Positions 27,428-63,199 are shown, counted from the first letter of the stretch. The stretch is DNA of 64,000 nucleotides from a virus (IMGVR_UViG_3300023174_000079:54974-118973); one strand, 5' to 3'. Made by a program: numbers and translations. Notes: a model not told the origin generated them from the sequence alone.

Positions 27428-27464
27428 TCGGTAATATAAGCGCCTATAATACATCAAATATAGT

Positions 27465-30662: not shown

Positions 30663-30699
30663 GTAGATATACAAGAAAAAGCATGTAAATAATTTTTTT

Positions 30700-31943: not shown

Positions 31944-32575
31944 AATTAAAAGATTATTATAAACAGAGCGTCGATATGAATGAACGTGTAGACGAGGGTG
32001 GAAATCGTATTGACGGATGGGCTTCAATGCATTACGGTGTATTTTCGAAAATTGTAAATGACAATAACTATAAAAAAATAGCTGAAATTGGTGTAGGTTA
32101 CGGTACACATGCAAAATATATCTTAGAACACTGCAAGGATATTGAGCAGCTGTATCTTGTGGATCCTATGGTTAACTACCCTAACGATTATTTTGCTATT
32201 GATATAATGAATCAAGAAGCAGAAATTTCTGGTAATAATTTTAATGAGCTTTATGTTTTAATAAACGACTATTTATCTGCACATCAAAACTATATATGGT
32301 TTAGAAAAAAAAGTCTTGAAGTGACAGAGGCTGAGATAGCTAATGCTAGTTTAGACGCTGTTTTTATAGATGGCGCCCATGATTACGACAACGTGTTGGC
32401 TGATTTATTTTTCTGGTCAAAAAAAATTAAACCTGGTGGTCAAATATTAGGTGATGATTTCTGGATAGGTGATATTAAGCGTGCTGTAGATTTCTTTTCA
32501 ACATCCACTACCATATCATATGATTTATTAAGACTACCGCATAAGGAGTATTATATCTATAGATTTAAATTTTAA
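31940..32575 (+). CDS. Class I SAM methyltransferase (Methyltransf_24-like)
   Basis: AEIGVGYG, VFIDGAHDY, KPGG..GDD. Confidence 0.85.
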   Translation: MKLKDYYKQSVDMNERVDEGGNRIDGWASMHYGVFSKIVNDNNYKKIAEIGVGYGTHAKYILEHCKDIEQLYLVDPMVNYPNDYFAIDIMNQEAEISGNNFNELYVLINDYLSAHQNYIWFRKKSLEVTEAEIANASLDAVFIDGAHDYDNVLADLFFWSKKIKPGGQILGDDFWIGDIKRAVDFFSTSTTISYDLLRLPHKEYYIYRFKF

Positions 32576-32580
32576 AATAC

Positions 32581-33429
32581 ATGATAACTATAAACTACGA
32601 AACAAATTTTGGTAATTGTATGTTCCAATATGCTTTTGCAAGATTACATGCCGAGGTAAATGGATTTAATTTACAAAGTGATTTTAAATATAGAAATATC
32701 CTAGATACAACAGACCACAGGCCCGGCGAAAACGAAAGAAATATCGGAAGCACTGCTACTATACATGATATAGTATACGACTCTTTTAGAAGGGACCATG
32801 GTTCGAACTATATGAGATTGTCACCCGATATGAGCTATTATATCAACGGGTATTTTCAGGATGCAGATTTATTTAACAATAACAGAGATCTTGTAAGAAG
32901 TTTCTTTAAGACACCTGAAGTATTAGATGTGAATACAGAGGACACTTTTGTTACGATAAGGCTTGGAGATTTTGTTAAAACAGGACAGGACTCAGAGATA
33001 ATAGATTATAATTGGTATATATCTGTTCTAGAGCAAATGCCCGGTAAGAAATTTATACAAGTTTGTGATTATAAAGGCACAAACCCGGATTATACGGCTC
33101 AGTTTATAAATACTGATCACGAAAAGAAATACATAGACCGTATCGTTAGTGCAGTTGATGGGTGTGAGGTATCATACATGGATCCTGATACTTCGAAGGA
33201 TTTTAGGAAATATTTTCAATATAAAAATATTGTATGTTCGAATAGTACGTTTGCTTGGTGGGGATGTTTTTTGAGTGATGCAGCAACTAATATTATTTCG
33301 TTTAATAAATTTGGATTTAAAGGTCTAGCGGAAATTGTTAGTCACGGACCTCATGTAAATAACTTACGTAACATTAAAAATATAGCGCATATAGTTGATG
33401 GAGGATTTTGTGATGTTACAAAATTGTAA
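32581..33429 (+). CDS. alpha-1,2-fucosyltransferase-like (GT11)
   Basis: GNCMFQYA, GYFQ, IRLGDF, NSTFAWWG. Confidence 0.85.
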   Translation: MITINYETNFGNCMFQYAFARLHAEVNGFNLQSDFKYRNILDTTDHRPGENERNIGSTATIHDIVYDSFRRDHGSNYMRLSPDMSYYINGYFQDADLFNNNRDLVRSFFKTPEVLDVNTEDTFVTIRLGDFVKTGQDSEIIDYNWYISVLEQMPGKKFIQVCDYKGTNPDYTAQFINTDHEKKYIDRIVSAVDGCEVSYMDPDTSKDFRKYFQYKNIVCSNSTFAWWGCFLSDAATNIISFNKFGFKGLAEIVSHGPHVNNLRNIKNIAHIVDGGFCDVTKL

Positions 33430-34030
33430 GATCTTTATTTTACATCATATTCCCGCAGCTTATCGTAAGCAAAAACTACAGGAAGATCTTAATAAAGTAA
33501 ATTTGATGTATCCGATAGAATGGGTAGAAGATTTTTTACCTGAAGATATTAAACACATAAAATGTAATATAAAGCTTACTGAGCTTTCTTTAACCCTCAA
33601 ACATCAATATGTTTTTGAGCAAATAGTTCAGCAGAAACTACCCTATGGCATTATTTTTGAAGATGATGTTGATTTACTTAGTGTAGATAATCTACAATGT
33701 TTTATTGAAAAAAGTATAGAAGAGATAAATGAAGCGCAAGGCGATATGTTGTGGATCGGTGATGCCTGGGTTGGGAAATATACAATTCCAAAAGAATGTA
33801 AATTAGCAAATAAACTTTCATATTTCTCTGAAAACTGCTGGTCTAGATGTACACATGCTTATATAATAAGCCTACAAGGCGCTAAGACAATGCTTGAAAA
33901 CTATAACTATGACTATGCTATTGATCATCTTTTTAATCATATTAAGCGACAGAATTCTTTAAATATCGGTTGGACGGAGCCCGGTTTAATACAAAAAACA
34001 GCTGAGGGGTTATGGCAAACAATAATGTAA
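33413..34030 (+). CDS. GT25-family glycosyltransferase
   Basis: SLTLKH, IIFEDD, CTHAYIISLQGA, AIDH. Confidence 0.8.
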   Translation: MLQNCKIFILHHIPAAYRKQKLQEDLNKVNLMYPIEWVEDFLPEDIKHIKCNIKLTELSLTLKHQYVFEQIVQQKLPYGIIFEDDVDLLSVDNLQCFIEKSIEEINEAQGDMLWIGDAWVGKYTIPKECKLANKLSYFSENCWSRCTHAYIISLQGAKTMLENYNYDYAIDHLFNHIKRQNSLNIGWTEPGLIQKTAEGLWQTIM

Positions 34031-34034
34031 AGCA

Positions 34035-35027
34035 ATGAATAAAGACAAGACAAAAATAGGTTTTTTTATACGTCACTTTACCGAGTGCGGAACAGAAGTA
34101 TCTATTTACGATTATGCAGATCATAATGAAACAATTTTAGGAAATGAAAGCGTCATATTAAGCTTTACGAAGGAAGCTCATGCATTATATGGAAAACCAT
34201 ATAATGAAAGTGTGTTTGAAAAATTCAATAAGCGATTTAAGGTTATACAAGCCAATAATTTTGATGAAATTCGTAATATTGTCGATCGTGAAAAAATAAA
34301 CGTATATTATACGCAAGTTTGGGGTATACCAGAAGAACATCCATACGGTGATATTAATAATACGAAATATTTTGTACACTGCGTCTTTGATGCTGTCGCA
34401 CCTCGTGGCGATATATATGTACCGATAAGCGATCAAATTAATAAAAAGAATAATACAAACTTTACTGTACTACCGTATATGGTACGAGTAGGTACAAATG
34501 CAGAGAATCTTCGCACGCAATTGAATATACCTAAAGATGCGATTGTGTTCGGCCGACACGGTGGTACAACATCTTTTGATATACCTATAGCAAGAGAAGC
34601 TGTAGCTGAAGTAGCTAGGAATAATAAACATATATATTTTATTTTTCTTAATACCCCTGCTTTTTGTGAACCGCTGCCGAATGTAATACATCTACCGTGC
34701 GAGGTCGATATAGAAAAGAAAAGAACTTTTATTAATACATGTGATGCTATGATTCATGGTCGAACTCATGGCGAAACTTTTGGTCTCGCTATTGGAGAAT
34801 TTGCAATGTGTTTGAAGCCTGTTATTTGCTGTAATCAATTTCTCGACTGGGCTCATCTTGATATACTTGGCGATAAGGCGGTTATATATAACAGTAAGGA
34901 TGAGCTAGTTAATATTTTAACAAACTTCGAACCTAAGAAATACGATATGACAGATAATGGCTATACAAAATATACGCCCGAGTACGTTATGTCAATCTTT
35001 AAAGCGCTGATTAACAAAGTTGTATAA
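34035..35027 (+). CDS. GT-B (GT4-like) glycosyltransferase
   Basis: GTEVSIYDYA, FGRHGG..SFD, CDAMIHGR..GETFGLAIGEF. Confidence 0.8.
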   Translation: MNKDKTKIGFFIRHFTECGTEVSIYDYADHNETILGNESVILSFTKEAHALYGKPYNESVFEKFNKRFKVIQANNFDEIRNIVDREKINVYYTQVWGIPEEHPYGDINNTKYFVHCVFDAVAPRGDIYVPISDQINKKNNTNFTVLPYMVRVGTNAENLRTQLNIPKDAIVFGRHGGTTSFDIPIAREAVAEVARNNKHIYFIFLNTPAFCEPLPNVIHLPCEVDIEKKRTFINTCDAMIHGRTHGETFGLAIGEFAMCLKPVICCNQFLDWAHLDILGDKAVIYNSKDELVNILTNFEPKKYDMTDNGYTKYTPEYVMSIFKALINKVV

Positions 35028-35672
35028 ATGAATACCAGTATACCATCATTTCAAGTTTTCTCTTACGCAAATTCAAATATTTCAAACGAGGTTTGTGATT
35101 ATCAGAAAGCGGTTTTTGATAGATTTAATCTATCTGTTGATCAAATTAAAGTGAATGTTGATCATAGTGTATATGGTCATGGTGATTTTTTAAACGAAAA
35201 AGCAAGAAATAGTAATAGTAAATATATAATATTTTTCGATGTAGATTGTATTCCGCTAACGTCGAATTTATACGATATTATTATTAATGAGCTAGAAAAA
35301 GAACAATGTATTATAGGTATTGAGCAATTATGTAATAGTAATCCTCATAATCATCTATATGCTGGTCCTGCTTGCCTTGCGTTTCCCGTCTCACTTTATA
35401 AAGAGCTCGGATGCCCGTCGTTAATTCAAAACAATAGAAGCGATGTTGCGGAAGAGCTGACATGGATATGTGAAGAGAATGATATTAAAGTCAAATATTT
35501 TACAGCTATTTCTTCTGAAATACCAAAGTGGAAATTAACAAGCGAAAGAAATTTTGGCATAGGCACAACTTATAGTTATAATCATGTTGATGTATTATAT
35601 CATCAATTTGAAATTCGCATGGGATGTGATCGATTTATAAATAAATGCAAATCCATTCTCAAGCAACACTAA
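35028..35672 (+). CDS. Putative GT-A glycosyltransferase
   Basis: HGDFL, IIFFDVDCIP DXD motif, SDVAEEL. Confidence 0.65.
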   Translation: MNTSIPSFQVFSYANSNISNEVCDYQKAVFDRFNLSVDQIKVNVDHSVYGHGDFLNEKARNSNSKYIIFFDVDCIPLTSNLYDIIINELEKEQCIIGIEQLCNSNPHNHLYAGPACLAFPVSLYKELGCPSLIQNNRSDVAEELTWICEENDIKVKYFTAISSEIPKWKLTSERNFGIGTTYSYNHVDVLYHQFEIRMGCDRFINKCKSILKQH

Positions 35673-35677
35673 TACAA

Positions 35678-36319
35678 ATGAAAAACAAAACATTAACAGA
35701 AATAGGAATACACTATGGAACGGACAAAGCAACGTTTCATGGATTTACAGACATCTATGATAGATATTTTACGCCTCTTAGAGACAAGCAGCTTAATATT
35801 TTAGAGATTGGTATTGATAGAGGATACTCCATACTTACGCTTAGAGATTACTTTATTAATAGTCAAATATATGCTATCGATTGTTTAGATAAGAGTCACC
35901 TATCCGGTGATCGTTTTATTTTTAATATAGGTGATCAGGCTGATAGAAATTTTATGCAACACCTGTTCCGGGGTATCGAATTTGATATTATTATCGATGA
36001 TGGTGGTCACGGTATGGAGCAACAGCAAGTCACGCTTGAGGAAATGCTTCCAAGATTAAAATCAGGAGGCATTTATGTTCTTGAAGATCTGCATACAAGC
36101 TATGAATACGGTTACACAGGCAACAAGGATGATAATACTACTCTCACATTGATCGAAAATATTAATAATTTATCTGCAGTTAAAAAAAATAATTTCTTCA
36201 TCAACGATTTAACAGAAGTGCAGCGTCAAATTAACGCTTGCAATGTATACTATAACGATACTGCTAGTGGCGAAGCTCACCGTGGTAAATCAATCACATC
36301 TGTTATCTATAAAAAATAA
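35678..36319 (+). CDS. SAM-dependent sugar O-methyltransferase (MycE/TylE-like)
   Basis: GTDK...H, LEIGI, GDQAD, DIIIDDGGH, GGIYVLEDLHTSY. Confidence 0.85.
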   Translation: MKNKTLTEIGIHYGTDKATFHGFTDIYDRYFTPLRDKQLNILEIGIDRGYSILTLRDYFINSQIYAIDCLDKSHLSGDRFIFNIGDQADRNFMQHLFRGIEFDIIIDDGGHGMEQQQVTLEEMLPRLKSGGIYVLEDLHTSYEYGYTGNKDDNTTLTLIENINNLSAVKKNNFFINDLTEVQRQINACNVYYNDTASGEAHRGKSITSVIYKK

Positions 36320-36320
36320 A

Positions 36321-37091
36321 ATGTCAGATTACTGTACAGTACTATTGACTAATGATGCGTATTTCGAGCGAATGCTACATACGTTGAGCGGTATCTTACA
36401 ATTCGTCTGCAGTTCAGACATAGTAATTGTTATTGGTGATGATCTTAAAGAATCTACTAAACTATCTCACCCTCTCCTAGGACATGAAAAAGTAAGAATA
36501 CAATATTTTCCTGATATTAAATTTAGCAATAACTTTAATATTAAATTCAATACATTACATAGAACACACTGGACCGAAAAATTTTTAACAAAAAAATTTC
36601 AATATCATAAATTTAACATCTTTAACCAATATTTCAAACAATGGAAATTTATACTGTATATAGATTCCGGCGCGACAATCTTTAGCTCCATCGACAGGAT
36701 GTTCAACGCAAAAAGAGTCGGTAAGTTTTGTGCACACAGCGACGGTTACCCAAATAACCCGTGGTTTTTAAAACGACAATTTGACGATACAGATTCGCTT
36801 TTTTCCGAGTTAACTAATACATATAATCTTGAAATAGATTATCCGCAAACAACAATAAAGTTATTTGATACCAACTTAATAGAAGAAAATACATTCAACG
36901 AAATTTATGATCTAGCCGAAAAATGGCCTATTTCACTCACTAACGATCAGGGTATCCTGGCTCTTTATTTTACAGCTATTAAAAATAAATGGGAACAAAT
37001 ACAACTAGGAGATGAAGACTATTGGTACTATGATTTTCATATACGACCAACAAAAGTTGATAAGCCTCATATAATTGTTAAATACGTCTAA
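36321..37091 (+). CDS. GT8-like glycosyltransferase
   Basis: KFNIF, LYIDSG, NDQGILAL. Confidence 0.7.
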   Translation: MSDYCTVLLTNDAYFERMLHTLSGILQFVCSSDIVIVIGDDLKESTKLSHPLLGHEKVRIQYFPDIKFSNNFNIKFNTLHRTHWTEKFLTKKFQYHKFNIFNQYFKQWKFILYIDSGATIFSSIDRMFNAKRVGKFCAHSDGYPNNPWFLKRQFDDTDSLFSELTNTYNLEIDYPQTTIKLFDTNLIEENTFNEIYDLAEKWPISLTNDQGILALYFTAIKNKWEQIQLGDEDYWYYDFHIRPTKVDKPHIIVKYV

Positions 37092-37095
37092 TAAT

Positions 37096-37629
37096 ATGTT
37101 TTATTCACAAATCGGTCAAGATGAATTTGTTTTTAATACTGCGAGTAAATACCTAAGCACAAAAAAGGATTTTACCTTTTTAGATATTGGATGCCAGGAT
37201 TATGAGCATATCAACAACACGTATTACTTAGAAAAGGTACATAACTGGAGAGGTGTAGCGATTGATATTGACGGTCAGTGGAGTCAGAACTGGATTAATA
37301 ATAGAAAAAATTCTGTATTTGTTGCTACAGATGCAACTACCGCCGACTACGGTAAAATATTACAAGATAATAATATGCCGACAGTAATAGATTATTTGAG
37401 TCTAGACTTAGAGCCACCACCGCTCACCCTGAAAGCACTGCATCGACTGCTTGAGTATAATTATACGTTTAATATTGTTACATACGAAACAGACTATTAT
37501 CGGGAAAATGAATACGGCGTCGATTCTCTTAGAAAACCTTCTCAAGATCTCTTTAAGTCGAAAGGTTATGTTCTTGTACAAGAAGGGCGTCAAGATGATT
37601 TTTATATACATAGCAGTTTACTGACTTGA
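37096..37629 (+). CDS. FkbM-like methyltransferase
   Basis: YSQIGQDEFV, FLDIG, NNTYYLE, IDYLSLDLE. Confidence 0.8.
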   Translation: MFYSQIGQDEFVFNTASKYLSTKKDFTFLDIGCQDYEHINNTYYLEKVHNWRGVAIDIDGQWSQNWINNRKNSVFVATDATTADYGKILQDNNMPTVIDYLSLDLEPPPLTLKALHRLLEYNYTFNIVTYETDYYRENEYGVDSLRKPSQDLFKSKGYVLVQEGRQDDFYIHSSLLT

Positions 37630-37661
37630 CCTTTCAAATAAAGTTATTATATTAATGTGAT

Positions 37662-38654
37662 ATGAAAACAGCATTAGTACTTGGTGCCGGGGGATTTATA
37701 GGCAATCATTTGGTTAATCGTCTCAAGGATGAAGGTTATTGGGTAAGAGGAGTAGATTTAAAATATAATGAATATCAGCAAACGCGTGCTGATGATTTTG
37801 TAATTGGAGATCTTACAGATCCCGTCGTAGTACGAAATGTAATGTGGGGACCCGATCAACGTGCGTATAGTATAAACCCGTTTGATGAAGTATATCAATT
37901 AGCAGCTGATATGGGTGGAGCTGGTTATATTTTTAGTGGCGAAAACGACGCAAACGTAATGCATAATTCTGCTACAATAAATCTCAACGTTGCTGATACC
38001 GCTGTACGAAACCATATTAAACAGCTTTTTTATAGCAGCAGCGCCTGTATGTATCCAGAACACAACCAACTTGATCCAAATAATCCAAATTGCGAGGAGA
38101 GTAGCGCTTATCCTGCTAATCCCGATAGTGAATATGGCTGGGAAAAACTCTTTAGTGAGCGACTATATCTCGCTTACCAGCGCAACTACGGTTTAAATGT
38201 ACGTATTGCGCGCTTTCATAACATCTTCGGGCCGCTTGGTTCCTGGAACAATGGTAAAGAAAAATCACCTGCAGCTATCTGTCGTAAGGTAGCACAAGCC
38301 GAAAATAACGGTGAAATTGAAATTTGGGGTGATGGAGAACAAACAAGAAGCTTTCTTTATATTGATGAGTGTCTTGAAGCGGTAAGACGATTAATGTTAT
38401 CTGAATTTACTGGACCGGTTAATATTGGATCAGATGAAATGGTAACAATTAATAAGCTTGCTGATATTGCATGTAAAGTTGCAAATAAGAATCTTACAAA
38501 AAAGCATATAACCGGACCACTTGGTGTAAGGGGCCGTAATTCAGACAATAGATTAATTAAGGAAAAGCTTAATTGGGCACCTTCACAGCCCCTTGAGCAA
38601 GGTATTGCTAATACGTATAACTGGATCCATGAACAGTTAAATAAGAGCAATTAA
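37662..38654 (+). CDS. GDP-mannose 3,5-epimerase (extended SDR)
   Basis: GAGGFIG, LAADMGGAGY, YSSSACMYP, PDSEYGWEK, RFHNIFGP, EKSPAAICRK, GVRGRNSDN. Confidence 0.9.
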   Translation: MKTALVLGAGGFIGNHLVNRLKDEGYWVRGVDLKYNEYQQTRADDFVIGDLTDPVVVRNVMWGPDQRAYSINPFDEVYQLAADMGGAGYIFSGENDANVMHNSATINLNVADTAVRNHIKQLFYSSSACMYPEHNQLDPNNPNCEESSAYPANPDSEYGWEKLFSERLYLAYQRNYGLNVRIARFHNIFGPLGSWNNGKEKSPAAICRKVAQAENNGEIEIWGDGEQTRSFLYIDECLEAVRRLMLSEFTGPVNIGSDEMVTINKLADIACKVANKNLTKKHITGPLGVRGRNSDNRLIKEKLNWAPSQPLEQGIANTYNWIHEQLNKSN

Positions 38655-38655
38655 A

Positions 38656-39351
38656 ATGCCAATTGATAAAAATATATTTCAAACATATAAGACAAGAGCT
38701 ATACCAGATTTTATGGAAAAGCTCATTGATGAGCTTAAAAATAAAAATCCTGATTATGAATATTTTCTTTTTGATGATGATGATATTCATCAATTTATAA
38801 GTGATAATTATAGCAAGGATATTCAACAGGCATATAGTAAGCTTCATATAGGGGCCGCAAAAGCTGATTTTTGGCGATATTTAGTTTTATATAAACATGG
38901 TGGTATTTATATAGATTTTGATTCGTATCCTCGTTGTGAGCTTAACGATATAATTCGAGAAACAGATTCTGCTATTATAACGCGTGAAGGTAATCCAGAT
39001 TATTTTGTTCAATGGTGCTTATTCTTTGGTAAAGAACATCCTGTCTTGAAAAAGACAATTGAATATACAGCAGAGAATATTCTTGAAGCTAAAGAGACAA
39101 AAATACTCAAATTAACAGGACCTGTTGTCTATACAAGAGCTATAAAAGATTATTATAGTTTTATTCCCTTTAAAGATTCTATTCACGACTTGACAGATGA
39201 TCATATCAACCAATTGATATCACAAAACACTAACGACGGTACGAGATTCTTTAAAACAGACTATGATAATCTTATAGATTTTCATCATGAGCATTTTAGT
39301 TATTTGTACGAGCCATACACTAGCGTTAAACATTGGATACAACAGCAATAA
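38656..39351 (+). CDS. GT32 (Och1-like) glycosyltransferase
   Basis: IFQT, KADFWRYLVLYKHGGIYIDFD, LTGP. Confidence 0.88.
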   Translation: MPIDKNIFQTYKTRAIPDFMEKLIDELKNKNPDYEYFLFDDDDIHQFISDNYSKDIQQAYSKLHIGAAKADFWRYLVLYKHGGIYIDFDSYPRCELNDIIRETDSAIITREGNPDYFVQWCLFFGKEHPVLKKTIEYTAENILEAKETKILKLTGPVVYTRAIKDYYSFIPFKDSIHDLTDDHINQLISQNTNDGTRFFKTDYDNLIDFHHEHFSYLYEPYTSVKHWIQQQ

Positions 39352-39389: not shown

Positions 39390-39977
39390 ATGATTATTAA
39401 CGTACCTATCTACGACGGCGACCTCATTCACTCACGCTTTGCATATAAGCATTTTCGTAAGAATACCCTCCCTATTGGTAATATTGTAGCGTTTAGAGCT
39501 CCTATGAAGGTTGAGGCTGAGGGAATGGTCGATAATGAAGATATTCTTAATGCTGATTACATCTACAGTGACGATGCAATTAACTTCTGCTGGGAAATTC
39601 CTAACCTTGATCCGTTTGGAGCTGTAGCGTTTCAGCGCTTACTCAATACGCAGATTGCTAATATTCTTAGTGCTAAGTATCTTCATGCTCCTATTGAGGT
39701 TGACGGTGATGATCTTATGGTTCATAAGGAGCATAATCAAGGCGGTGTTACGCAGATGAAAGGTAAGTGCAGTGTTAGCATTACATATTCAAAGAACGGA
39801 GTCGCTCTAGGTCACACCGGTATTAATATTGAAGCTGGAAAGAAGGCACCTGCTTTTGCTTTTTCTACTAGACTTGGCGAAGAAGAAGCTCAGCAGTTTA
39901 TGAAAGATATTATTGAGGTATTTTACGCGATGGTCGAGGATATTTTCCTTGCAACCTGCAAGCTCACACTAGCATAA
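39390..39977 (+). CDS. DUF366-family protein (lipoate/biotin-ligase-like fold)
   Basis: YDG, IVAFRAP, MVDNED, QRLL, GDDL, KCSVSI, HTGINI pattern; own TTGATA-16-TATCAT-6-ATG promoter. Confidence 0.7.
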   Translation: MIINVPIYDGDLIHSRFAYKHFRKNTLPIGNIVAFRAPMKVEAEGMVDNEDILNADYIYSDDAINFCWEIPNLDPFGAVAFQRLLNTQIANILSAKYLHAPIEVDGDDLMVHKEHNQGGVTQMKGKCSVSITYSKNGVALGHTGINIEAGKKAPAFAFSTRLGEEEAQQFMKDIIEVFYAMVEDIFLATCKLTLA

Positions 39978-50365: not shown

Positions 50366-51871
50366 ATGTCAAAATCAATCCGTCCTTCACAGTCCTACAT
50401 CGATGAGAGAAGCGCTAAGACATTGCTTGAGAAGTGGAGTCCTGTATTGGATTACACATCCAACAACGTTGCTGCGATTGAAGACGATCATACCCGCTTG
50501 AACACCGCCATCCTCCTTGAGAACCAAGAGAAGTGGTGCTTTGAAGCCTCCAACAGTGATGCTGGTGGTGTCTTCGGTTCAAACGCTACATTCAACCAGT
50601 ATGGCAATCAGTTCCCTTCACAGAACGATAACGCCTATGCTCCGAATGATGCTCGTCTTCCTAAGATCCTCATCCCGATGATCAGGCGTACATTCCCTGA
50701 GCTCATCACTAACGAAATCGTTGGTGTTCAGCCCATGAGTGGTCCAGTCGGTCTTGCTTTTGCACTCCGTTATAAGTACGAACCTACTTCCCTCGGCTAT
50801 CAGAGTGGATCGCTTGATGCTTCAAGCACACAGCAGTACAGCACAGCTAGTAATGCTCTCCTCTCCGCTAACCCTGAATTAGGTTATCAGTACCTCAACA
50901 CAGCCTTCACCGGCGCCAGCTCTTCAGCTCTCTCCGGTGCTACAGGTTACTTCACAATGGTTCCTGAAGATCAGGGCGTTGCCGCACTCCTCGGCCAGTT
51001 CGAGTTGTCCAGCAACATTCCTCAGATCGTCGTTTCCTTCGAGAAGACAGCAGTTGAAGCCGGCACCCGCCGTCTTGCAGCTCGCTGGTCCGTTGAGCTC
51101 GAACAGGATCTTAAGAACATGAACGGTATCGATATCGATACTGAGCTCACCAACGCTATGTCGTATGAGCTTCAGGCCGAAATCGACCGTGAAATGATCA
51201 TTCGTATGATCCAGACAGCCCTCAATGCCGGTTACGGCGTTGGGTTCTCCGTCTGGAATCCTGCTTCAGCCGATGGTCGCTGGCTCGTTGAGCGTAATCG
51301 TGACTTCTATCAGAGACTCATCGTTGAGGCTAATCGTATTGCCGTCCGTAACCGCCGTGGTTCCGCCAACTTCATCGTTGGTACACCTCGCGTTTGCGCG
51401 ATCCTTGAAATGCTCCCTGAATTCCAGTGGGTACCCGTTCAAGGCTCTGTCAATACTCAGCCCGTCGGTGTTGCAAAGGTAGGTTCCTTAGCTGGTCGCT
51501 TCAATGTTTACCGTGATACACGTACAGAGGCTCAGTTCGAGGCTAACGCCGGGGGTAACTTCGGTGGTAAGGGTGGTTTCCCAACTAACGTTGGTGGAAC
51601 TAGCGCCCAGACTCGTACTACCCGTCTCGACTACGCACTTCTCGGTTACAAGGGACCTGAATTCTACGACACCGGTATCATCTACTGCCCATACATCCCT
51701 GTTATGGTTCAGCGTACTATCGGTCCTAACGACTTCAGTCCCCGTGTTGGCTTGCTCACCCGTTACGGTGTCGTTGATAATATCTTTGGTGCAAACCTTT
51801 ATTATCACGTTATCGTTCTCCAGGGTCTCAGCACAGCCTTCACACCGGCTACGCAGTCTGTCTACTTCTAA
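50366..51871 (+). CDS. 23: gp23 major capsid protein
   Basis: LLEKWSPVL, LLENQ, GVQPMSGPVGLAFALR, R.LAARWSVELEQDL, EIDRE, YCPYIP, P.VGLLTRYG. Confidence 0.98.
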   Translation: MSKSIRPSQSYIDERSAKTLLEKWSPVLDYTSNNVAAIEDDHTRLNTAILLENQEKWCFEASNSDAGGVFGSNATFNQYGNQFPSQNDNAYAPNDARLPKILIPMIRRTFPELITNEIVGVQPMSGPVGLAFALRYKYEPTSLGYQSGSLDASSTQQYSTASNALLSANPELGYQYLNTAFTGASSSALSGATGYFTMVPEDQGVAALLGQFELSSNIPQIVVSFEKTAVEAGTRRLAARWSVELEQDLKNMNGIDIDTELTNAMSYELQAEIDREMIIRMIQTALNAGYGVGFSVWNPASADGRWLVERNRDFYQRLIVEANRIAVRNRRGSANFIVGTPRVCAILEMLPEFQWVPVQGSVNTQPVGVAKVGSLAGRFNVYRDTRTEAQFEANAGGNFGGKGGFPTNVGGTSAQTRTTRLDYALLGYKGPEFYDTGIIYCPYIPVMVQRTIGPNDFSPRVGLLTRYGVVDNIFGANLYYHVIVLQGLSTAFTPATQSVYF

Positions 51872-52509: not shown

Positions 52510-52539
52510 AAAAAGCCCTGGCTTAAGCCAGGGCTTTTT
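52510..52539. terminator. Bidirectional terminator
   Basis: Perfect palindrome AAAAAGCCCTGGCTTAAGCCAGGGCTTTTT between convergent genes. Confidence 0.9.
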
Positions 52540-52564: not shown

Positions 52565-53473
52565 TTATTGACCCATTGCCTTCTCCGTATACACGTTTGT
52601 GTCACCAAGAAATTTCGGAAGAAGGTGTCTATTACTAGCGCGTGTCGGATTGATATCTAGCGATCCACGACGAGAATAGAGAAGAGTAACCACACAATCT
52701 ACAACTTCCTTATGCTCCATAATACTTGTAAGAAGCTTTTCAGCACAAAATTCATGGAATTCATTAACCTCACGCAATGAAACAATCTGCTTAAAGAGTG
52801 AGACAGGATCAACTGATGTACCTTTTGTAATAATATTAATATAAGCAGCCCCTGTATCCTTTTGCTTTGTATGTCTACAACGTGATCTTAGAGCATTTGT
52901 AAAATATTTGTTATCACAAAGTGTCCCGCCGTTAGATCTTTCAATAAATTTAAGATGATTTTCCTTAGCGCTATAATCGGTAATCTCAACACCATTAGCT
53001 CTGTTTATAATGTCATACAAATCGGTGTAGTCGTTAAGAGGAAAAAGGCCTGTAGAGCCTGATTTAAAAAATTTAACCTTTACCTCCTTACCAATAGCAT
53101 TTGTAAGATCAATGGTTATTTGTCTCTCGTAATTTGTAATAGCCTCTTCAACAGTATCGCCCATCTTACACATATCAAATGAATTCATATAGAGCTTCGC
53201 TGACTTTGACTCTACCATAAACTCTGAATCAGCAGGGTATACATACTTAATAGTACCGGCAATAGGTACACCACTATTCAAAAGAAATGTTGCTTCGTGA
53301 CAATGCCATGTATCAAAACCTACAAACTCATCACCTTTAATTCCCCACCCTTCACGAGCGAGAATTCTTGGCATGGGGTTGAGAAGTGATGGATCAAATT
53401 GCTCGGTATATACAGCATATGAAGCCGATGAACCAAGAGTCTTAGAAGCAATGTCAGTTATATTTGTTGTCAT
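52565..53473 (-). CDS. queF: NADPH-dependent preQ0 reductase, long (two T-fold) type
   Basis: QueF motif VESKSAKLYMNSF, RSRCRHTKQKD (catalytic Cys/Asp positions), NEFHEFC, RRGSLDINP. Confidence 0.88.
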   Translation of the reverse strand: MTTNITDIASKTLGSSASYAVYTEQFDPSLLNPMPRILAREGWGIKGDEFVGFDTWHCHEATFLLNSGVPIAGTIKYVYPADSEFMVESKSAKLYMNSFDMCKMGDTVEEAITNYERQITIDLTNAIGKEVKVKFFKSGSTGLFPLNDYTDLYDIINRANGVEITDYSAKENHLKFIERSNGGTLCDNKYFTNALRSRCRHTKQKDTGAAYINIITKGTSVDPVSLFKQIVSLREVNEFHEFCAEKLLTSIMEHKEVVDCVVTLLYSRRGSLDINPTRASNRHLLPKFLGDTNVYTEKAMGQ

Positions 53474-53475
53474 AA

Positions 53476-54027
53476 TTATTGTAGTTTTATTTTAATAGCT
53501 TCCATTCGTTCTTCAACTGTTCCTTTTAGTCGAACGAGTTTATTTTCTAGTAAATCATTATATGAAATAATAGCTTGTTCAAACGTTTCAATCATTTTGT
53601 TTCTAAACTCCACATCAGTACTTCTCTCTCCATCATCAATAAGAGCTACATCATAAGGATCAGTATAAAAAATAATATCATATTGAGTAATAAGCTTTTT
53701 AAAAACGTTCTTCGTATATTCAAATACCCACTTCGGAACACTACCTTCTATATGAAGATATCCTGTATAACATAGTCCATCGAGAATACAACGATCAAGT
53801 ATAGCCCCCTTTGTCTCCCTAAATCTTAGAACGTTCTCGATATGTTTATTCGTGATTAAGCATTGCGTTAAACCCGTACCCTCTTCATTAATAGGAACAT
53901 TAAACTCACGCTTTACTAGCCTCGTAACCTCATCTACAAACTCAAACCGATCGCTATAGATTTCTTTACAAGCCTTCAGTAATGTAGTTTTACCAGAACT
54001 CTGAACCCCAGAAAAGCTTATTAACAT
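53476..54027 (-). CDS. P-loop nucleotide (dNMP) kinase-like protein
   Basis: FSGVQSSGKTT, LDRCILD, DDGER, LKGTVEER. Confidence 0.8.
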   Translation of the reverse strand: MLISFSGVQSSGKTTLLKACKEIYSDRFEFVDEVTRLVKREFNVPINEEGTGLTQCLITNKHIENVLRFRETKGAILDRCILDGLCYTGYLHIEGSVPKWVFEYTKNVFKKLITQYDIIFYTDPYDVALIDDGERSTDVEFRNKMIETFEQAIISYNDLLENKLVRLKGTVEERMEAIKIKLQ

Positions 54028-54043
54028 ATATCAATTATAGAGA

Positions 54044-54391
54044 CTACTTTGCCCACTTGCCACGATTAACAATCTCAGCAATAATACTATAGACAGAGAT
54101 ATCGAGAAATGCATCGAAGACAGACTCGTTAGCTGATTCTAGGCTATTTTTTCTAAGAACAAGATTGATCAATCGCTGCAGCTTATCATTAAGACGAACA
54201 ACAATGGCTGAAATTGAAGCCTTTCTTTCATCAGGTGTTACTAACGAAGATCCGAGAGAAATATTACCCGGACCGTAGTCAAACTGCTTCTTACAGAATG
54301 TAAGATAATGTTCGTGCTGAATCTTTTTGAATTCGACACATGTATCAGGATATTGTGTTTCTATTGCTTTTACTATTTCATCTATGCTCAT
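54044..54391 (-). CDS. Nucleotide-modification-associated domain 1 (DUF1599; MazG/dUTPase-like helical fold)
   Basis: KKQFDYG, VRLNDKLQRL, ESVFDAFLDISVYSII. Confidence 0.75.
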   Translation of the reverse strand: MSIDEIVKAIETQYPDTCVEFKKIQHEHYLTFCKKQFDYGPGNISLGSSLVTPDERKASISAIVVRLNDKLQRLINLVLRKNSLESANESVFDAFLDISVYSIIAEIVNRGKWAK

Positions 54392-54941
54392 AATTTTCTA
54401 AAAATTGATACCACATTACACTCCCAAGAGAGTGTAACTGGCTAATTACAGTTTCCTCTGAAAGACCAGTAATATTAATAGCATGAGACACAATAATCTC
54501 ACCTTCGTCAACAGCAGGTATAACTCTATGAATAACAGCACCAGCGGTCGTATAGCCTGCTTTAATAGCTCTTACCTGTGGATCTTTACCTTTAAGATCT
54601 GGATACTCAGTTATAAGTCCAGGGTGCAAATTATAAATATTTTTATACTTCTTACAAATCTCTTTTGGAATTATTCTCAAATATCCATGTAGAGTAATAA
54701 GCGGGTTCTTATATGGCTTAAGCGCTTTTTTATAATCTTTTAGTTCAGGATTCTTAGGTAATGTTATCCAGCAGCTTAATTTACCCTCATCCTTAGCCTG
54801 TTTAAGCATTATGTTTACACCATCATCATTTTGCCGGTTAGTAATAATTGCAGTAGGTACCTTACCAGTATGTTGAATTATATTATTCAATTCTGTACCG
54901 CTCTGACTAAAGAATGCTATCCAATTTTTATCTACCTGCAT
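54378..54941 (-). CDS. PurN-like formyltransferase (DpdN-like candidate preQ1 formyltransferase)
   Basis: FFSQSGTE, LHGYLRII, NLHPGL, GAVIHRV...VDEGEI; same operon as queF. Confidence 0.82.
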   Translation of the reverse strand: MQVDKNWIAFFSQSGTELNNIIQHTGKVPTAIITNRQNDDGVNIMLKQAKDEGKLSCWITLPKNPELKDYKKALKPYKNPLITLHGYLRIIPKEICKKYKNIYNLHPGLITEYPDLKGKDPQVRAIKAGYTTAGAVIHRVIPAVDEGEIIVSHAINITGLSEETVISQLHSLGSVMWYQFLENYEHR

Positions 54942-55744
54942 AAGATCTTCTTAAACATTTTAGTATTATAATCTATAATTTCCATCTCATCTTTTGTTAC
55001 CTGGTGGTCGATAAGATCAGCAAGCTTTGTGGATGGCTTTGTCGGAAGACCGTACTCAGCATCATACTTCATATTATGAATAGCAGCAACAATCGGATTA
55101 CTTGTATCACAACTTGCAATATTAAAAATATTATGATTCAAGTAATAACGGAATTCCTTAGCTAAGGAGCAACCAAGAAGATGATGTGGTTTATTCCAAT
55201 TCCAGATACCTGAATCAATAAGCTGACTAATAAACCGCTGACGTCCTGAGCACCAACGTTCGAGTTGAGTATGACCCTCACCGGTATGTTCATAATAAGA
55301 GAAGTCAAAGCTTATCGCTATCATATCAGCATTTTCAGACATATACTTGTAACACTCAATAAGCTGCTGCCACGTTTTGCCTTGAACAGCTCCGATTGCC
55401 CTTGTCACAAATTCACTCTTAATTTGCTTGATGTTCGTCTTCCAGACATTAAAGCTTTCTATCGTTGCCATGTTATTCTCGAGAACATCTGGTACAATAA
55501 ACATATTAGGCTTGAGATCAAGGACAGCAGCTAAAAACTTACTACCCTCAAATGCATGTCCAAGCTCGAAAATAGAGTTATCAAGAAGTACTTCGCGGTT
55601 ATAAACTTCACGAGCTGTTTTAAAATATTGGTAATACTTTGGATGCGACTCAAATAAATGTACCAAAGCATAATCAAAATCATTATACAGTGTTGACGTT
55701 TGTAGTATAGAAATAGGAGATTCGTGTGAAACCTTAATTAGCAT
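54932..55744 (-). CDS. TGT-fold (DpdA-like) 7-deazaguanine-handling enzyme
   Basis: LLDNSIFE, IVPDVL, GAVQG, HHLLG, SCDTSNP map onto TGT barrel motifs; first gene of the queF operon. Confidence 0.7.
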   Translation of the reverse strand: MLIKVSHESPISILQTSTLYNDFDYALVHLFESHPKYYQYFKTAREVYNREVLLDNSIFELGHAFEGSKFLAAVLDLKPNMFIVPDVLENNMATIESFNVWKTNIKQIKSEFVTRAIGAVQGKTWQQLIECYKYMSENADMIAISFDFSYYEHTGEGHTQLERWCSGRQRFISQLIDSGIWNWNKPHHLLGCSLAKEFRYYLNHNIFNIASCDTSNPIVAAIHNMKYDAEYGLPTKPSTKLADLIDHQVTKDEMEIIDYNTKMFKKILCR

Positions 55745-55780
55745 ATCCAGATTATAGGTGTAAATAATGGTATATCAAGT

Positions 55781-58558
55781 ATGGATTATCCAAAATATTA
55801 CGGCAATTATATGGGCATCGTCGTACAAAACAATGATCCTCAATACAGAGGTCGTGTCAAGGTATTCGTGCCGCATATCACGCCAACAGTCTATAAGAAC
55901 TGGATAGAAAATAGCGATCAACAACCTGCTGTTGATCGTGTGTTTAAATTTATTGGCTCAAACATAGGAAGTGATCTTACAAATATTATTGACGACTTAA
56001 AATTAATTCTTCCTTGGGCTGAAATTGCCTCTCCTATTACCGGAGAATCAAGCGCTGGTCGGTACCATGCAGCGTCAAAGAAAGCAACTACAAGTGACGG
56101 TAGTAACTATAATTACCTCTTCGGATCAAACCCGACGCCATATTCTCAAAATTCTGACAATATAGCTGAAAAACCAGGTCATATCTATGATATGGCGACT
56201 GTCAATCTAAGTGATGCATTTAATAACCCTCAACTTACAAACGTTAATAATGTCAATAAGCTAAGCTATAACTATACTCCAGAGTGTTATAGTAATAGTG
56301 GTAAAGGTTCCTTTGCTGTTCCAAATGTAGGATCACACGTATGGGTATTCTTTAATGCTGGTGACCCATTAAAGCCGGTTGTTTTTAGCGTTTCGTACGG
56401 TGCTTCAGAATGGAATTCCATTTATGACGCTGTAGCAGGTCAACCCGGGTTAGACTATCCCGGTGAATGGGAGAATGCATCAACAGGATCCGGTACTATT
56501 AACGCCGAAACCTATCGCAACAAGTATGTTATCAATCAAAAAGGTGGTACATTAGCTTTTGTAAATACAGATAATAGAGAGATTTTAAAGCTAACTCATT
56601 ATTCAGGATCATTCAAAGAGTTTAATAATCAGGCTAATATTGAACTCGCAACCAATAATGACCAGAAACTAGTCCTCGGCGACTTGTTTCAAACAGTTAG
56701 AGGTACGAGAAACGAATTTACCCAACGTGATTATGATAACGTTATCGCAGGAGATCACTATCGTAAGGTCGGTGATTTAAATGTCGCGCTCTATCAGCAG
56801 TGGAAATCAATTATGAATCCAATTGCTGATATCAGGCAATTATTCGATATTCGTAGAACAAATGGTGTTGTAGATAACAGCGTAGCTAATTTATTAAAAC
56901 TTAATGGTACCGGTCAAACAAAAAATGGAAACCCAGCATTATGCCCTGTTTGCGCTGATGCTAATAATACAGTACTAGCTCTCAATAATTCGTTTGCACC
57001 TGGTTATAGAGCCATGACAAACACTGTATATACAGGTAATACTATTGGTGATGGTGTTGGTAAACAAACTCTGACTGGCTTGGACTCGATAATTCGTGAT
57101 GTTACTCCAAGTAGTTTTCTCGCTGGTTTAAATGTAGGATCTCTTCTTAATTTAATTAAATCGACTGTCGGTCCTTTTAATCCACAAGCTAGTGTTATTA
57201 CTGCTTTCACAGGTGGTAATACATCTACAGCTATTGTAGGTACCGATCGATCTACATTGCCTCATAGACCAGGTTTTCCTGCCGGGCATAAATGCCCAGC
57301 TTGCGGTGGTACGGGATTAAGTCCGAGTTCATTTAATGGTGTCTGGGCAGTAGAGACAAAGAAGACTGTCGATCTGCCAAACATGATGCTTGCTGCAGTA
57401 CCACAGCTAGCAAAGCTTGAAGCTCTTATGGGCCAAGGTGGTTCAGAGATTTTAGAAATTACAAAACATAAAGTCGAAACTATTGGCACGGTAATGAATG
57501 ATTGGGGGGCTATTCGTATTGACCCTTTAGGTAAGATGGAACCAGCTTATGTTCAAGTACATCCTGGTGCTTCATTAACGATTAACAAACCGTCACCGCT
57601 TATTGAGCAAGTTATGGTCGATGATCTCCCGGGCGGTACATATACTCTCAATGTCTGTAATCGCTATAATGTTCTTGTTGGAGCAGGTGGAGTTAATCTC
57701 AAGTCTTATGGTGTAGTTAATATCTCCGGTGCTATGACAAATATTGCCGGCGAACAGGTTAACATAGGTAGTGCAAATGAAGTCAATATTGACGGTGGTA
57801 AACGCTTGTCGCTCGTTGGAGATATCGTTCATATTAAACAGCGTAATAACGAACAAGTGCTACTTGATGGTGATGTCGGTATTTCAGGTAATCTATACAT
57901 TAAAGGTGGAGTGTATGTTGAACAGAATCTTGCAGCTCAATCCACCGATACCCCTCAGCGTAAGCGTCAAACCGACTCTACTATTGTTAAGGGTAGCCCA
58001 GTATCAGATATGTGTACTGGTGTTGCTATTCCGATGGATACAGCGGGTCAAGTTCTTGATCCTACAACAAGAGAATTAAAACCAGGAGGTGGTACACCAG
58101 TGTATATGGGATACACGGATACAACAAGACCTGTCGGTGGGATTCCCGTAGGCACAGTTATCGGTCAGGTTATTGTAGGTGGGGTTACGTATAGTGTAAC
58201 TGCAATTGCAGCAAACGTAACAGGTGTCGCAAGTGGTGGCTTGATGATTAATGGTACAGGCTCAACAAATTTAAGCTTAAGAGGCTTACCGCCTTCCGAG
58301 GTGCAAAAATTGATTAATGCATCAAAGATACCGACTTCTGGTGGAGCTAATCAATTCCCAATTATGAATCTCGGTACAGGTGCTCATGCTGACTCACACG
58401 TTATGGCGCCTCATACTCATAGTCATGATGAAGGTGAAGTGGGCTCTCACATGGCTATACGTCAAATAGCTATGTCGGGTTTAGTTGCTTACGATAATAC
58501 AGACTTCGGCGACACTAAGACAGCTAAGCCATATGATAAGGTATCTTATCTTGCTTAA
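55781..58558 (+). CDS. 5: gp5-like baseplate hub/spike protein
   Basis: Y.G.VVQNNDP...GRVKV..P OB fold, PNVGSHVWVFF..GD, HYSGSFKEF, beta-helix repeats, C-terminal HTHSH. Confidence 0.8.
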   Translation: MDYPKYYGNYMGIVVQNNDPQYRGRVKVFVPHITPTVYKNWIENSDQQPAVDRVFKFIGSNIGSDLTNIIDDLKLILPWAEIASPITGESSAGRYHAASKKATTSDGSNYNYLFGSNPTPYSQNSDNIAEKPGHIYDMATVNLSDAFNNPQLTNVNNVNKLSYNYTPECYSNSGKGSFAVPNVGSHVWVFFNAGDPLKPVVFSVSYGASEWNSIYDAVAGQPGLDYPGEWENASTGSGTINAETYRNKYVINQKGGTLAFVNTDNREILKLTHYSGSFKEFNNQANIELATNNDQKLVLGDLFQTVRGTRNEFTQRDYDNVIAGDHYRKVGDLNVALYQQWKSIMNPIADIRQLFDIRRTNGVVDNSVANLLKLNGTGQTKNGNPALCPVCADANNTVLALNNSFAPGYRAMTNTVYTGNTIGDGVGKQTLTGLDSIIRDVTPSSFLAGLNVGSLLNLIKSTVGPFNPQASVITAFTGGNTSTAIVGTDRSTLPHRPGFPAGHKCPACGGTGLSPSSFNGVWAVETKKTVDLPNMMLAAVPQLAKLEALMGQGGSEILEITKHKVETIGTVMNDWGAIRIDPLGKMEPAYVQVHPGASLTINKPSPLIEQVMVDDLPGGTYTLNVCNRYNVLVGAGGVNLKSYGVVNISGAMTNIAGEQVNIGSANEVNIDGGKRLSLVGDIVHIKQRNNEQVLLDGDVGISGNLYIKGGVYVEQNLAAQSTDTPQRKRQTDSTIVKGSPVSDMCTGVAIPMDTAGQVLDPTTRELKPGGGTPVYMGYTDTTRPVGGIPVGTVIGQVIVGGVTYSVTAIAANVTGVASGGLMINGTGSTNLSLRGLPPSEVQKLINASKIPTSGGANQFPIMNLGTGAHADSHVMAPHTHSHDEGEVGSHMAIRQIAMSGLVAYDNTDFGDTKTAKPYDKVSYLA

Positions 58559-62506: not shown

Positions 62507-62723
62507 TAAACTAATAGAAGACTTTAATGTTTTACCAAAGAGTCAAAACGCTATTCAATCTGGACCTGATATTGGTATGACAACAGGGGATATAGCAGGT
62601 ACTTTTCCTAATCGAAATGGAGCTGTTATCGGTAATCTTTTACCTGATAATGTTCAAGTAAAACTCAAGAAAAAACACATCAATAAGATTTGTAATCTTC
62701 TGTCTTTAGCTCTTAAAGACTAA
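62496..62723 (+). CDS. Small putative head-internal protein
   Basis: MKFDKLIED leader, Gly-rich middle, Lys-rich end. Confidence 0.55.
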   Translation: MKFDKLIEDFNVLPKSQNAIQSGPDIGMTTGDIAGTFPNRNGAVIGNLLPDNVQVKLKKKHINKICNLLSLALKD

Positions 62724-63199
62724 TCAGTTATTTCCCAAGGAAATACAATCCAAGAATCATTTGGATATTCTGTAACGTAATAATCAGGAACAAATGTTGT
62801 ATGTGGTTTGGTGAAAAGGGTAGCGAACCTAAGATTATTAAGACCATAATTAGTCGCTAATTCATTCTTAATATACTCAAGGGTCGACCCACCATCGGAT
62901 ATATCATCAACAACTAATACCTTATCGTCACGATGTTTAAGAGCTAGACTATGACCAGGTTCTTGAATAGAGATAATAAACCCTGACTTCACATTCTTTT
63001 CATTGTACGTCTGTACGGAGAAGTTATGAACAATCTTTACATTAAGTCTATAGGCAAGTAGAGTGCCTGGGATCATTCCACCTCGACCAATCGTAATAAT
63101 AACATCAGGAATAAAATTATCGCCCTTAAGAAGTTCTTCAAGACTTGTTACACCATAAAAGATATCTGTCCAACCAAGGTTTTTAACTACTGTATCCAT
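62720..63199 (-). CDS. Type I purine phosphoribosyltransferase (Gpt-like)
   Basis: IGRGGMIP, PRPP loop VLVVDDISDGGST, WIVFPWE; TTGATT-16-TATAAT-6-ATG. Confidence 0.88.
   Translation of the reverse strand: MDTVVKNLGWTDIFYGVTSLEELLKGDNFIPDVIITIGRGGMIPGTLLAYRLNVKIVHNFSVQTYNEKNVKSGFIISIQEPGHSLALKHRDDKVLVVDDISDGGSTLEYIKNELATNYGLNNLRFATLFTKPHTTFVPDYYVTEYPNDSWIVFPWEITD

Follow-up and report, generated by a model that had tools for sequence, protein, structure and literature searches.

A DpdA3-type 7-deazaguanine operon in a T4-like phage, and comparative evidence favoring guanine exchange on free nucleotides

The operon described here is found at positions 52565-55744, on the minus strand, of a 64,000-nucleotide window drawn from a viral contig of 118,973 bases (IMGVR_UViG_3300023174_000079:54974-118973). 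The contig is 54% complete by CheckV and comes from an uncultured T4-like myophage. Five tightly packed open reading frames (ORFs) encode, in order, a DpdA3-subfamily protein with the fold of tRNA-guanine transglycosylases (TGTs), a DpdN-like formyltransferase of the PurN family, a small DUF1599/Nmad1 protein, an AAA_28 P-loop kinase, and QueF (Table 1). Sequence comparison identifies the operon as that half of a DpdA3-type 7-deazaguanine system which tailors and inserts the base, and as a new member of the known system that produces 2'-deoxy-7-(formylamino)methyl-7-deazaguanosine (fdPreQ1). This nucleoside is most likely the end product here as well, and would replace all or nearly all deoxyguanosine (dG). 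The comparative evidence favors, rather than proves, a pre-replicative reading, in which guanine would be exchanged on free nucleotides, over the published proposal that the exchange occurs in DNA after replication.

Table 1. Features of the operon, of the related deazaguanine genes, and of other parts of the contig (window positions, except where G000:C1 is given)
Feature	Position	Strand	Length (amino acids)	Details
DpdA3-subfamily TGT-fold protein	54932-55744	-	270	
DpdN-like PurN-family formyltransferase	54378-54941	-	187	
DUF1599/Nmad1 four-helix protein (predicted)	54044-54391	-	115	
AAA_28 P-loop kinase	53476-54027	-	183	
Bimodular QueF (predicted)	52565-53473	-	302	
Sigma-70-type promoter, TTGATA-16-TATAAT	55751-55778	-		11 of 12 matches
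Weaker promoter-like site	53489-53516	-		Just upstream of QueF
Intrinsic terminator hairpin	52510-52539	-		13-bp stem, 7 G-C pairs, T run
Major head protein gene	50366-51871	+		Flanks the operon
Baseplate hub gene	55781-58558	+		Flanks the operon
FolE (GTP cyclohydrolase I)	15193-15840	-		PF01227 at 5.3e-50
QueD-like protein	18458-19123	+	221	C-terminal extension; PF01242 at 4.6e-16; phrog_2389
QueE-like radical SAM enzyme	21202-22026	+		phrog_2076 at 3.5e-41; TIGR03963 at 1.2e-16
Second AAA_28 kinase paralogue	22058-22810	+	250	Acidic tail of 70 amino acids; directly after QueE
QueC	G000:C1:53205-53966			1 kb before the window
Class-II glutamine amidotransferase	G000:C1:51585-52268	-		About 3 kb before the window
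Purine phosphoribosyltransferase	62720-63199	-		PF00156 at 1.3e-19
T4 gp43-type family B DNA polymerase	593-3181	-		phrog_262 at 6.5e-195
Glycosyltransferase run	23623-39351	+		
DUF366 protein	39390-39977	+		9.3e-24
Large terminase region	G000:C1:35834-39897	-		
Adenylylsulfate (APS) kinase	G000:C1:2310-2837	+		1.1e-45

Successive ORFs overlap or nearly abut (in order from dpdA3, overlaps of 10 and 14 nucleotides, then gaps of 16 and 2 nucleotides). The promoter upstream of dpdA3 is very probably real, because 64 of 66 related viral contigs conserve the TTGATA-16-TATAAT pattern 30-42 nucleotides upstream of the start of DpdA3, compared with 1.4% of 20,000 random windows. The region overall shows no enrichment of promoter-like matches (12, with 14.2 expected from shuffles). 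Upstream of internal cassette genes the pattern is present at 1/56, 3/51, 8/66, and 22/59 loci. The last of these counts refers to QueF, so this gene, which has a weaker promoter-like site here, may also be transcribed alone. Because the -10 hexamer ends 6 nucleotides before the ATG of dpdA3, the operon mRNA is predicted to be leaderless or nearly so. The presence of a host-type promoter within the late structural gene block points to early transcription of the operon. The terminator hairpin is strong and is common to the operon and the converging plus-strand gene. A megablast search with the operon against phage records gave no match.

An original prediction, made from the sequence alone, had described one transcription unit, and the ORFs, promoter, and hairpin are found where it placed them. 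The identities that it gave to four of the products (TGT-fold protein, formyltransferase, kinase, and QueF) are borne out. Of the four preQ0 genes that it names, FolE, QueD, and QueE are encoded inside the window and QueC 1 kb outside. It also pointed to a precedent of fdPreQ1 with a PurN-like DpdN and a divergent DpdA in a Flavobacterium phage, and this system is described by Cui et al. 2023 (PMC10516641).

The DpdA3 protein is 45% identical to the DpdA of Flavobacterium phage immuto (YP_010114477; 94% of the query, E 5e-61 by tblastn) and 43% identical to gp056 of Campylobacter phage CP220 (95% of the query, E 1e-48 by tblastn), the two proteins to which Cui et al. gave the name DpdA3 (PMC10516641). 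Together with a match to phrog_19058 at 4.3e-53, these similarities place the protein, among DpdA and TGT sequences, in the DpdA3 subfamily. No Pfam or NCBIfam model matches it (the Pfam TGT family, PF01702, gives nothing at E up to 0.1), its profile matches no PDB chain by sequence at E up to 10, and an hhalign comparison with the DpdA of phage 9g is not significant, which leaves no residue-level alignment to a characterized DpdA. An AlphaFold2 model (predicted local distance difference test score 92.5) forms a TGT-type TIM barrel that matches tRNA-guanine transglycosylases by Foldseek (E 1e-8, probability 1.00) and by VIA-align (Z 18.0, root-mean-square deviation 3.0 A, 232 of 270 residues, spanning model residues 1-270). 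Three aspartates, D55, D86, and D213, show no variation across 22 sequences and, in the model, are located where strands b3, b4, and b8 end. The corresponding strand ends of bacterial DpdA carry Asp95, Asp130, and Asp256, which serve as acid/base, in base recognition, and as nucleophile (PMC10164549). The aspartates of DpdA3 are candidate equivalents of these residues, mapped by strand topology and spacing only.

In TGT and DpdA proteins, the tRNA/DNA platform is formed by the insertion Ins8, which has 128 residues in bacterial DpdA, and by a CXCX2CX22H zinc (Zn) site, both of which are conserved in DpdA and TGT (PMC10164549). In contrast, the DpdA3 model has only about 36 residues (215-250) between b8 and a8, and the C.C..C motif of the Zn site (CXCX2C...H) is present in none of 150 DpdA3 representatives. 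DpdA3 thus lacks the Zn site and most of the polynucleotide-binding insertion, which favors the reading that it acts on nucleotides. Acidic proteins make up 94% of 133 representatives, with a median pI of 5.5, which likewise counts toward this reading. The family is large (403 representative clusters at an E-value of 1e-30 or lower) and is nearly confined to viruses, with 7 contigs from metagenome-assembled genomes (MAGs) across one genome each of 185,579 species. One representative (P0014, 419 amino acids) combines, perhaps as a true fusion, DpdA3 with a 160-amino-acid C-terminal extension that has a faint match to GNAT acetyltransferases (E 0.047). Two others (P0016 and P0068, 447 amino acids) join DpdA3 to a formyltransferase, either as a fusion or through a gene-calling or frameshift artefact. 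The C-terminal extension of P0127 looked DUF1599-like by eye, and was rejected as a DUF1599 fusion (hhalign E 0.009, probability 4.5%; nothing by Pfam or by a purpose-built hidden Markov model).

The fourth protein is, by sequence, a kinase of the nucleoside or nucleotide type, with a putative nucleoside or nucleotide acceptor. It matches AAA_28 (1.1e-12, 49 bits against a cut-off of 27) and PHROG 2107, 'thymidylate kinase' (2.8e-25). Its profile aligns over the full length with thymidylate kinase (TMPK) 2pbr (6.5e-5, positions 1-182 to 1-189), and also matches deoxynucleoside kinase (dNK) 8puu (2.4e-5) and NadR ribosylnicotinamide kinase (2.9e-4). Residues G7, G12, K13, and T15 of the Walker A motif, D78-R79, and R135 are invariant or nearly so.

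The kinase gene is closely tied to dpdA3. In a comparison set of 71 viral contigs with DpdA3 relatives (41-86% identical), it is located within the DpdA3 cassette in 66, or in 66 of the 67 that have enough DNA; four of the five misses (L026, L035, L061, and L071) are contigs that end less than 1.4 kb after dpdA3. The genes that follow dpdA3 are those for formyltransferase, DUF1599, kinase, and QueF at 48 loci; formyltransferase, kinase, and QueF at 5; kinase and QueF at 6; the kinase alone at 5; and DUF1599 and kinase at 1. The cassette is cut at the contig end at 5 loci, and the remaining locus (L073) has none of the four genes within 10 kb of dpdA3. MAG contigs with enough DNA carry the kinase in three of five cases. 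The kinase is therefore the constant partner of DpdA3, and which other genes are present depends on the presumed end product.

The same association is seen among 50,697 phage records, of which 21 contain a member of the kinase family. Eighteen of them coincide exactly with the Campylobacter and immuto records in which DpdA3 is encoded; there, the two genes are separated by at most about 0.8 kb and, in the Campylobacter phages, adjoin. Two further records are other contigs of one of these phages, and the last is CC_R7. With the family restricted to DpdA3 phages, a role as a general deoxynucleoside monophosphate (dNMP) kinase like T4 gp1 was rejected. In Chryseobacterium phage MA9V-3, a distant DpdA3-like gene adjoins an unrelated small P-loop gene (AAA_18/AAA_33). 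The window phage also encodes a second kinase of the same family, whose orthologues in two related, near-complete phage contigs are 57% and 53% identical to it, and CP220 likewise has two copies. Two kinases would fit two successive phosphorylations.

The third protein falls below the Pfam cut-off for PF07659 (0.016, 16 bits against 25). However, 8 of 13 homologues match this family (best E 1.8e-4), 27 of its 30 atlas matches are DUF1599 clusters, and its top structure matches in BFVD are named Nmad1 (best E 2.2e-6). Of the earlier description 'MazG-like Nmad1', structure and atlas matches back a probable DUF1599/Nmad1 membership, whereas a link to MazG or to pyrophosphatases was not found by sequence or fold. 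The protein has no sequence match in the PDB, and searches with its model gave nothing at E 1e-3 or better by Foldseek against the PDB (best lead 2p06, probability 0.63) and generic helical matches only by VIA-align (Z 7.6 or lower). Comparisons by hhalign with a PF18909 protein and with the PRA-PH protein of immuto were not significant. DUF1599 may clear dGTP or assist the formyl step. A predicted complex of the formyltransferase with DUF1599 (score 0.00, mark 0.32) counts neither way.

In some related cassettes (L046 and L055, and an identical copy of the gene in L056), a dATP/dGTP diphosphohydrolase of family PF18909 (about 8e-21) occupies the DUF1599 slot. A test of three large contigs showed PF18909 and DUF1599 to be mutually exclusive, and the two of these that carry DUF1599 (91% and 88% complete) have no MazG, PRA-PH, or HD match. 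Other genes for nucleotide enzymes are an inorganic pyrophosphatase in the L057 cassette, an IMPDH/GMP-reductase homologue in the cassettes of 17 of the 71 loci, and, in immuto, a PRA-PH hydrolase of the MazG class, encoded upstream of dpdA3 at a distance of two genes. In L047 (10803-12826) and L059 (5800-10321), a HIT protein is inserted after DpdA3. These two loci also have a reductase of the ornithine cyclodeaminase/mu-crystallin family between the formyltransferase and DUF1599, and in L049 and L060 a cupin is inserted after DpdA3. The cassettes with HIT, reductase, or cupin genes may make other preQ1 derivatives.

The formyltransferase matches Formyl_trans_N (PF00551; 1.8e-17, 64 bits against a cut-off of 26), and its nearest solved relatives are glycinamide ribonucleotide (GAR) transformylases (E 2e-9). 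Residues N104, H106, and D145 are invariant in 16 homologues, and we take them to be the catalytic set of PurN. By homology, a PurN-like enzyme with an intact N-H-D triad should be able to formylate an amine. In the literature, too, formylation of preQ1 by DpdN is a prediction (PMC10516641). QueF matches both of its domains above the Pfam cut-offs (QueF_N at 4e-23, QueF at 2.3e-10) and matches TIGR03138 at 1.8e-50 over positions 12-267 of 275, with 172 bits against a cut-off of 293. Its translation contains ESKSAKLY and a Cys followed by T..Q.D, which presumably represent the QueF motif and the catalytic Cys. By homology, FolE, QueD, QueE, and QueC are predicted to make preQ0, which QueF would reduce to preQ1.

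A purine phosphoribosyltransferase (PRT) accompanies the pathway. The protein most resembles xanthine-guanine PRT (PRK09177 at 3.5e-23, which falls short of the cut-off), has homologues in all five DpdA3 phage records tested, although the CP220 match is weak, and its gene is located within the deazaguanine cluster in immuto and in the MAG contig L083. L083 has the most compact cluster (L083:701-8943, 8.3 kb, one strand), with the order QueE, PRT, QueD, FolE, DpdA3, formyltransferase, kinase, QueF, QueC. A stand-alone class-II glutamine amidotransferase is encoded near QueC, beside a glycosyltransferase gene; two of the five tested records of DpdA3 phages have orthologues, and immuto and CP220 have none. 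This enzyme could supply ammonia to QueC or signal a further deazaguanine derivative.

The DNA of phage immuto_2-6A has no detectable dG peak and contains 345,000 fdPreQ1 per 10^6 nucleotides (PMC10516641, Table 1). Its gene order (DpdA3, a small ORF, formyltransferase, 'thymidylate kinase', QueF) is that of the operon for the shared genes, with identities of 45% for DpdA3, 40% for DpdN, 31% for the kinase, and 38% for QueF; the kinase annotation has gone unremarked, and purine PRT and preQ0 genes are present as well. The two phages differ in that DUF1599 is situated between DpdN and the kinase in the window operon, whereas immuto has the PRA-PH hydrolase instead. The window phage is T4-like with a family B polymerase and has its preQ0 genes spread over 40 kb, whereas immuto has a family A polymerase. 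In CP220 and other Campylobacter Firehammerviruses, dG is fully replaced by the amide 2'-deoxy-7-amido-7-deazaguanosine (dADG) (PMC10516641). There, DpdA3 is directly followed by the AAA_28 kinase (36.5% identical), and CP220 has the second kinase paralogue and a weak PRT match. In contrast to the window phage, CP220 has no QueF or formyltransferase, and has an HD/AAA_33 fusion upstream.

Of the models considered, a pre-replicative one accounts for these observations most economically, and we consider it somewhat probable. In this model, dGTP or host-derived dGMP would supply the sugar-phosphate, with a hydrolase yielding dGMP, and DpdA3 would exchange guanine for the deazaguanine base on dGMP (or dG) by the double-displacement chemistry of its family. 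The formyltransferase would take as its substrate either the base or the aminomethyl-deazapurine nucleotide; because the latter is similar to GAR, on which PurN acts, formylation of the nucleotide would be chemically natural. The AAA_28 kinase, perhaps together with the paralogue encoded beside QueE, would phosphorylate the modified product, and host nucleoside diphosphate kinase would make the modified deoxynucleoside triphosphate (dNTP), which the phage gp43 polymerase would incorporate and must accept. PRT would return the released guanine to GMP and GTP and so feed FolE again. We see an even chance that DpdA3 is the first enzyme of the TGT superfamily to act on a free deoxynucleotide or deoxynucleoside, in a self-feeding pathway with a kinase, a dGTP-clearing hydrolase, and a guanine-recycling PRT. 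A nucleotide-pool route had been proposed in the original prediction, and it gains strength, short of proof, from the kinase pairing, the nucleotide hydrolases in cassettes, and the lost insertion.

The model resembles known phage pathways. Phage T4 makes hydroxymethylcytosine (hmC) DNA with the dCTPase gp56, the dCMP hydroxymethylase gp42, and the dNMP kinase gp1, and Z-genome phages use MazZ, PurZ, and DatZ. By analogy, a hydrolase would here be followed by a base-changing enzyme acting on the dNMP and then by a dedicated kinase, and a gene of the MazZ family, PF18909, is found in some DpdA3 cassettes. The difference would be in the base-changing step, where a transglycosylase would replace the base entirely; no precedent for this is known in those pathways. 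Nucleoside 2'-deoxyribosyltransferases exchange bases on free deoxynucleosides through a covalent glycosyl-enzyme, which is the reaction type proposed for DpdA3. They have an unrelated fold and a Glu nucleophile, and no sequence or fold link to DpdA3 was seen. To our knowledge, the other well-studied complete base replacements of phages (T4 hmC, Z-genomes, and deoxyuridine phages) are made at the dNMP or dNTP level. For Campylobacter phages, a modified-dGTP route was raised before the discovery of DpdA3 (Hutinet 2019, PMC6884629), and Cui et al. cite free dADG nucleoside in CP220-infected cells (PMC10516641).

According to the published alternative, which we hold to be unlikely though far from negligible, the guanine of finished DNA is swapped by DpdA3 for preQ1 or formyl-preQ1, with dPreQ1 in DNA as a possible substrate of DpdN; side tasks would then fall to the kinase, DUF1599, and the nucleotide enzymes, such as guanine-pool management or service as a DpdB-like ATP-dependent helper. 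The TGT fold with its three invariant aspartates agrees with this proposal, and all tested DpdA proteins insert bases into DNA, as Cui et al. propose for DpdA3 (PMC10516641). Bacterial DpdA needs an ATPase partner, DpdB (PMC10164549), and therefore an NTPase encoded beside a DpdA is not in itself a sign of nucleotide chemistry. DpdB, however, is ParB-like, whereas the partner of DpdA3 is a kinase-type P-loop protein that matches TMPK, dNK, and NadR kinases over their full length, and no kinase is annotated in the DpdA1 cluster of phage 9g. Bacterial DpdA, DpdA1, DpdA2, and TGT share with DpdA3 the TIM barrel, and its three aspartates are candidate equivalents of theirs by strand topology, but the loss of Ins8 and the Zn site has removed from DpdA3 the carriers of DNA and tRNA contacts. 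Side tasks also leave the dGTP diphosphohydrolase, pyrophosphatase, HIT protein, and GMP-reductase homologue in cassettes hard to explain. Moreover, DpdA3 was not made to work in an E. coli DNA-insertion assay, and replacement to completion in DpdA3 phages is the highest known for any DpdA, the others reaching 0.1-30% (PMC10516641).

A two-stage hybrid, which seems improbable to us, would have PRT couple the deazaguanine base to phosphoribosyl pyrophosphate (PRPP), as ToyH does in toyocamycin synthesis. The formyltransferase and kinase would act on that ribonucleotide, a ribonucleotide reductase would give the deoxy form for replication, and DpdA3 would do no more than remove residual G from DNA. 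This scheme would keep DpdA3 on DNA, like the rest of its family, would give PurN a ribonucleotide, which is its natural substrate, and would account for the recurrence of PRT in DpdA3 phages, including the copies inside the L083 and immuto clusters. However, the similarity to xanthine-guanine PRT fits plain guanine salvage, modified ribonucleotides would reach RNA too, and other well-studied pre-replicative phage pathways begin from dNMP. The signature gene is dpdA3, not that for PRT, and its product has lost the polynucleotide platform; furthermore, no ribonucleotide reductase was found in the 119-kb contig, which is an incomplete genome. That the genes instead raise queuosine precursors for host or phage tRNA, with no DNA modification, is very improbable. 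This older idea was put forward for phages that have Que genes but no DpdA (Hutinet 2019, PMC6884629), whereas the homologous immuto and CP220 clusters go with fully substituted DNA (PMC10516641). A formyltransferase has no place in queuosine synthesis, and DpdA3 lacks the tRNA-binding insertion.

Several points weigh against nucleotide-level exchange. The characterized enzymes of the TGT/DpdA superfamily all have polynucleotide substrates, and post-replicative insertion is the proposal of the authors who gave DpdA3 its name (PMC10516641); the nucleotide-level chemistry of DpdA3 is a prediction from comparison, and its three aspartates were mapped by strand topology, not by residue-level alignment. 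Nucleoside kinases also belong to AAA_28, and a P-loop protein may be no more than an ATPase. The kinase is missing from L073, within 10 kb and across the whole 106-kb contig (48% complete), and from the MAG loci L085 and L086 within 6 kb, absences that the post-replicative proposal accommodates; all three have a diverged DpdA3. Conversely, record CC_R7 has a match like that of the kinase paralogue and no DpdA3 match at 1e-5. Related loci are kin and not phylogenetically independent, so the counts overstate independence. DUF1599 has no similarity to any pyrophosphatase in sequence and fold searches and tracks the formyltransferase, which is also present at 50 of 51 DUF1599 loci; DUF1599 may serve the formyl step instead. 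The HD/AAA_33 protein encoded beside DpdA3 in CP220, with a weak PNK match, could be of an RNA-repair type. Because a glutamine amidotransferase is encoded near QueC, the final base could differ from fdPreQ1. Finally, the contig covers only 54% of the phage genome.

The original prediction held that the roles of the kinase and Nmad1 proteins were not established, and this agrees with the literature. The words 'kinase' and 'DUF1599' have no occurrences in PMC10516641, nor do 'kinase' and 'pyrophosphat' in one text supplement of that paper. A literature search limited to papers outside subscription assigned no role to the kinase or to DUF1599, and did not place any DpdA3 on nucleotides. The exchange of PF18909 for DUF1599 in one slot, with complementary distribution, appears to be new here, as do the pyrophosphatase and HIT inserts, the location of PRT inside compact clusters, the loss of Ins8 and the Zn site as set against the bacterial DpdA structure, and the conserved leaderless promoter.

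The mechanism bears on the 100% replacement of G in DpdA3 phages and on the failure to reconstitute DpdA3. If the pre-replicative reading is true, the pathway would do for guanine what the T4 hmC and Z-genome pathways do for other bases, the published view of 7-deazaguanines as bases that all enter DNA post-replicatively would no longer hold, and the TGT superfamily would have a small-molecule branch. DpdA3, the kinase, and the formyltransferase could then be used to make 7-deaza-dGTP analogues enzymatically, which are used in sequencing and in the polymerase chain reaction. The question is directly testable with the cultured Flavobacterium phage immuto.

In addition to the polymerase, head, and hub genes of Table 1, the window encodes gp46/47-like nuclease subunits, a gp55-like late sigma factor, UvsW/UvsY-like proteins, and a portal protein. 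A 16-kb run contains at least a dozen glycosyltransferase genes (GT2, GT11, GT25, GT47-like, and DXD types), three methyltransferase genes (two FkbM-type), and a nucleotide-sugar epimerase gene, which is unusual for a T4-like phage; DNA, the virion, and the surface of the host are possible targets. The gene for the large terminase is seemingly split or invaded, with a 655-amino-acid ORF that has a LAGLIDADG domain before Terminase_6N, and a separate 410-amino-acid ORF with Terminase_6C. A 65%-identical copy of the DUF366 protein is encoded 6 kb from the cassette in L045, and the contig also carries a gene for APS kinase.

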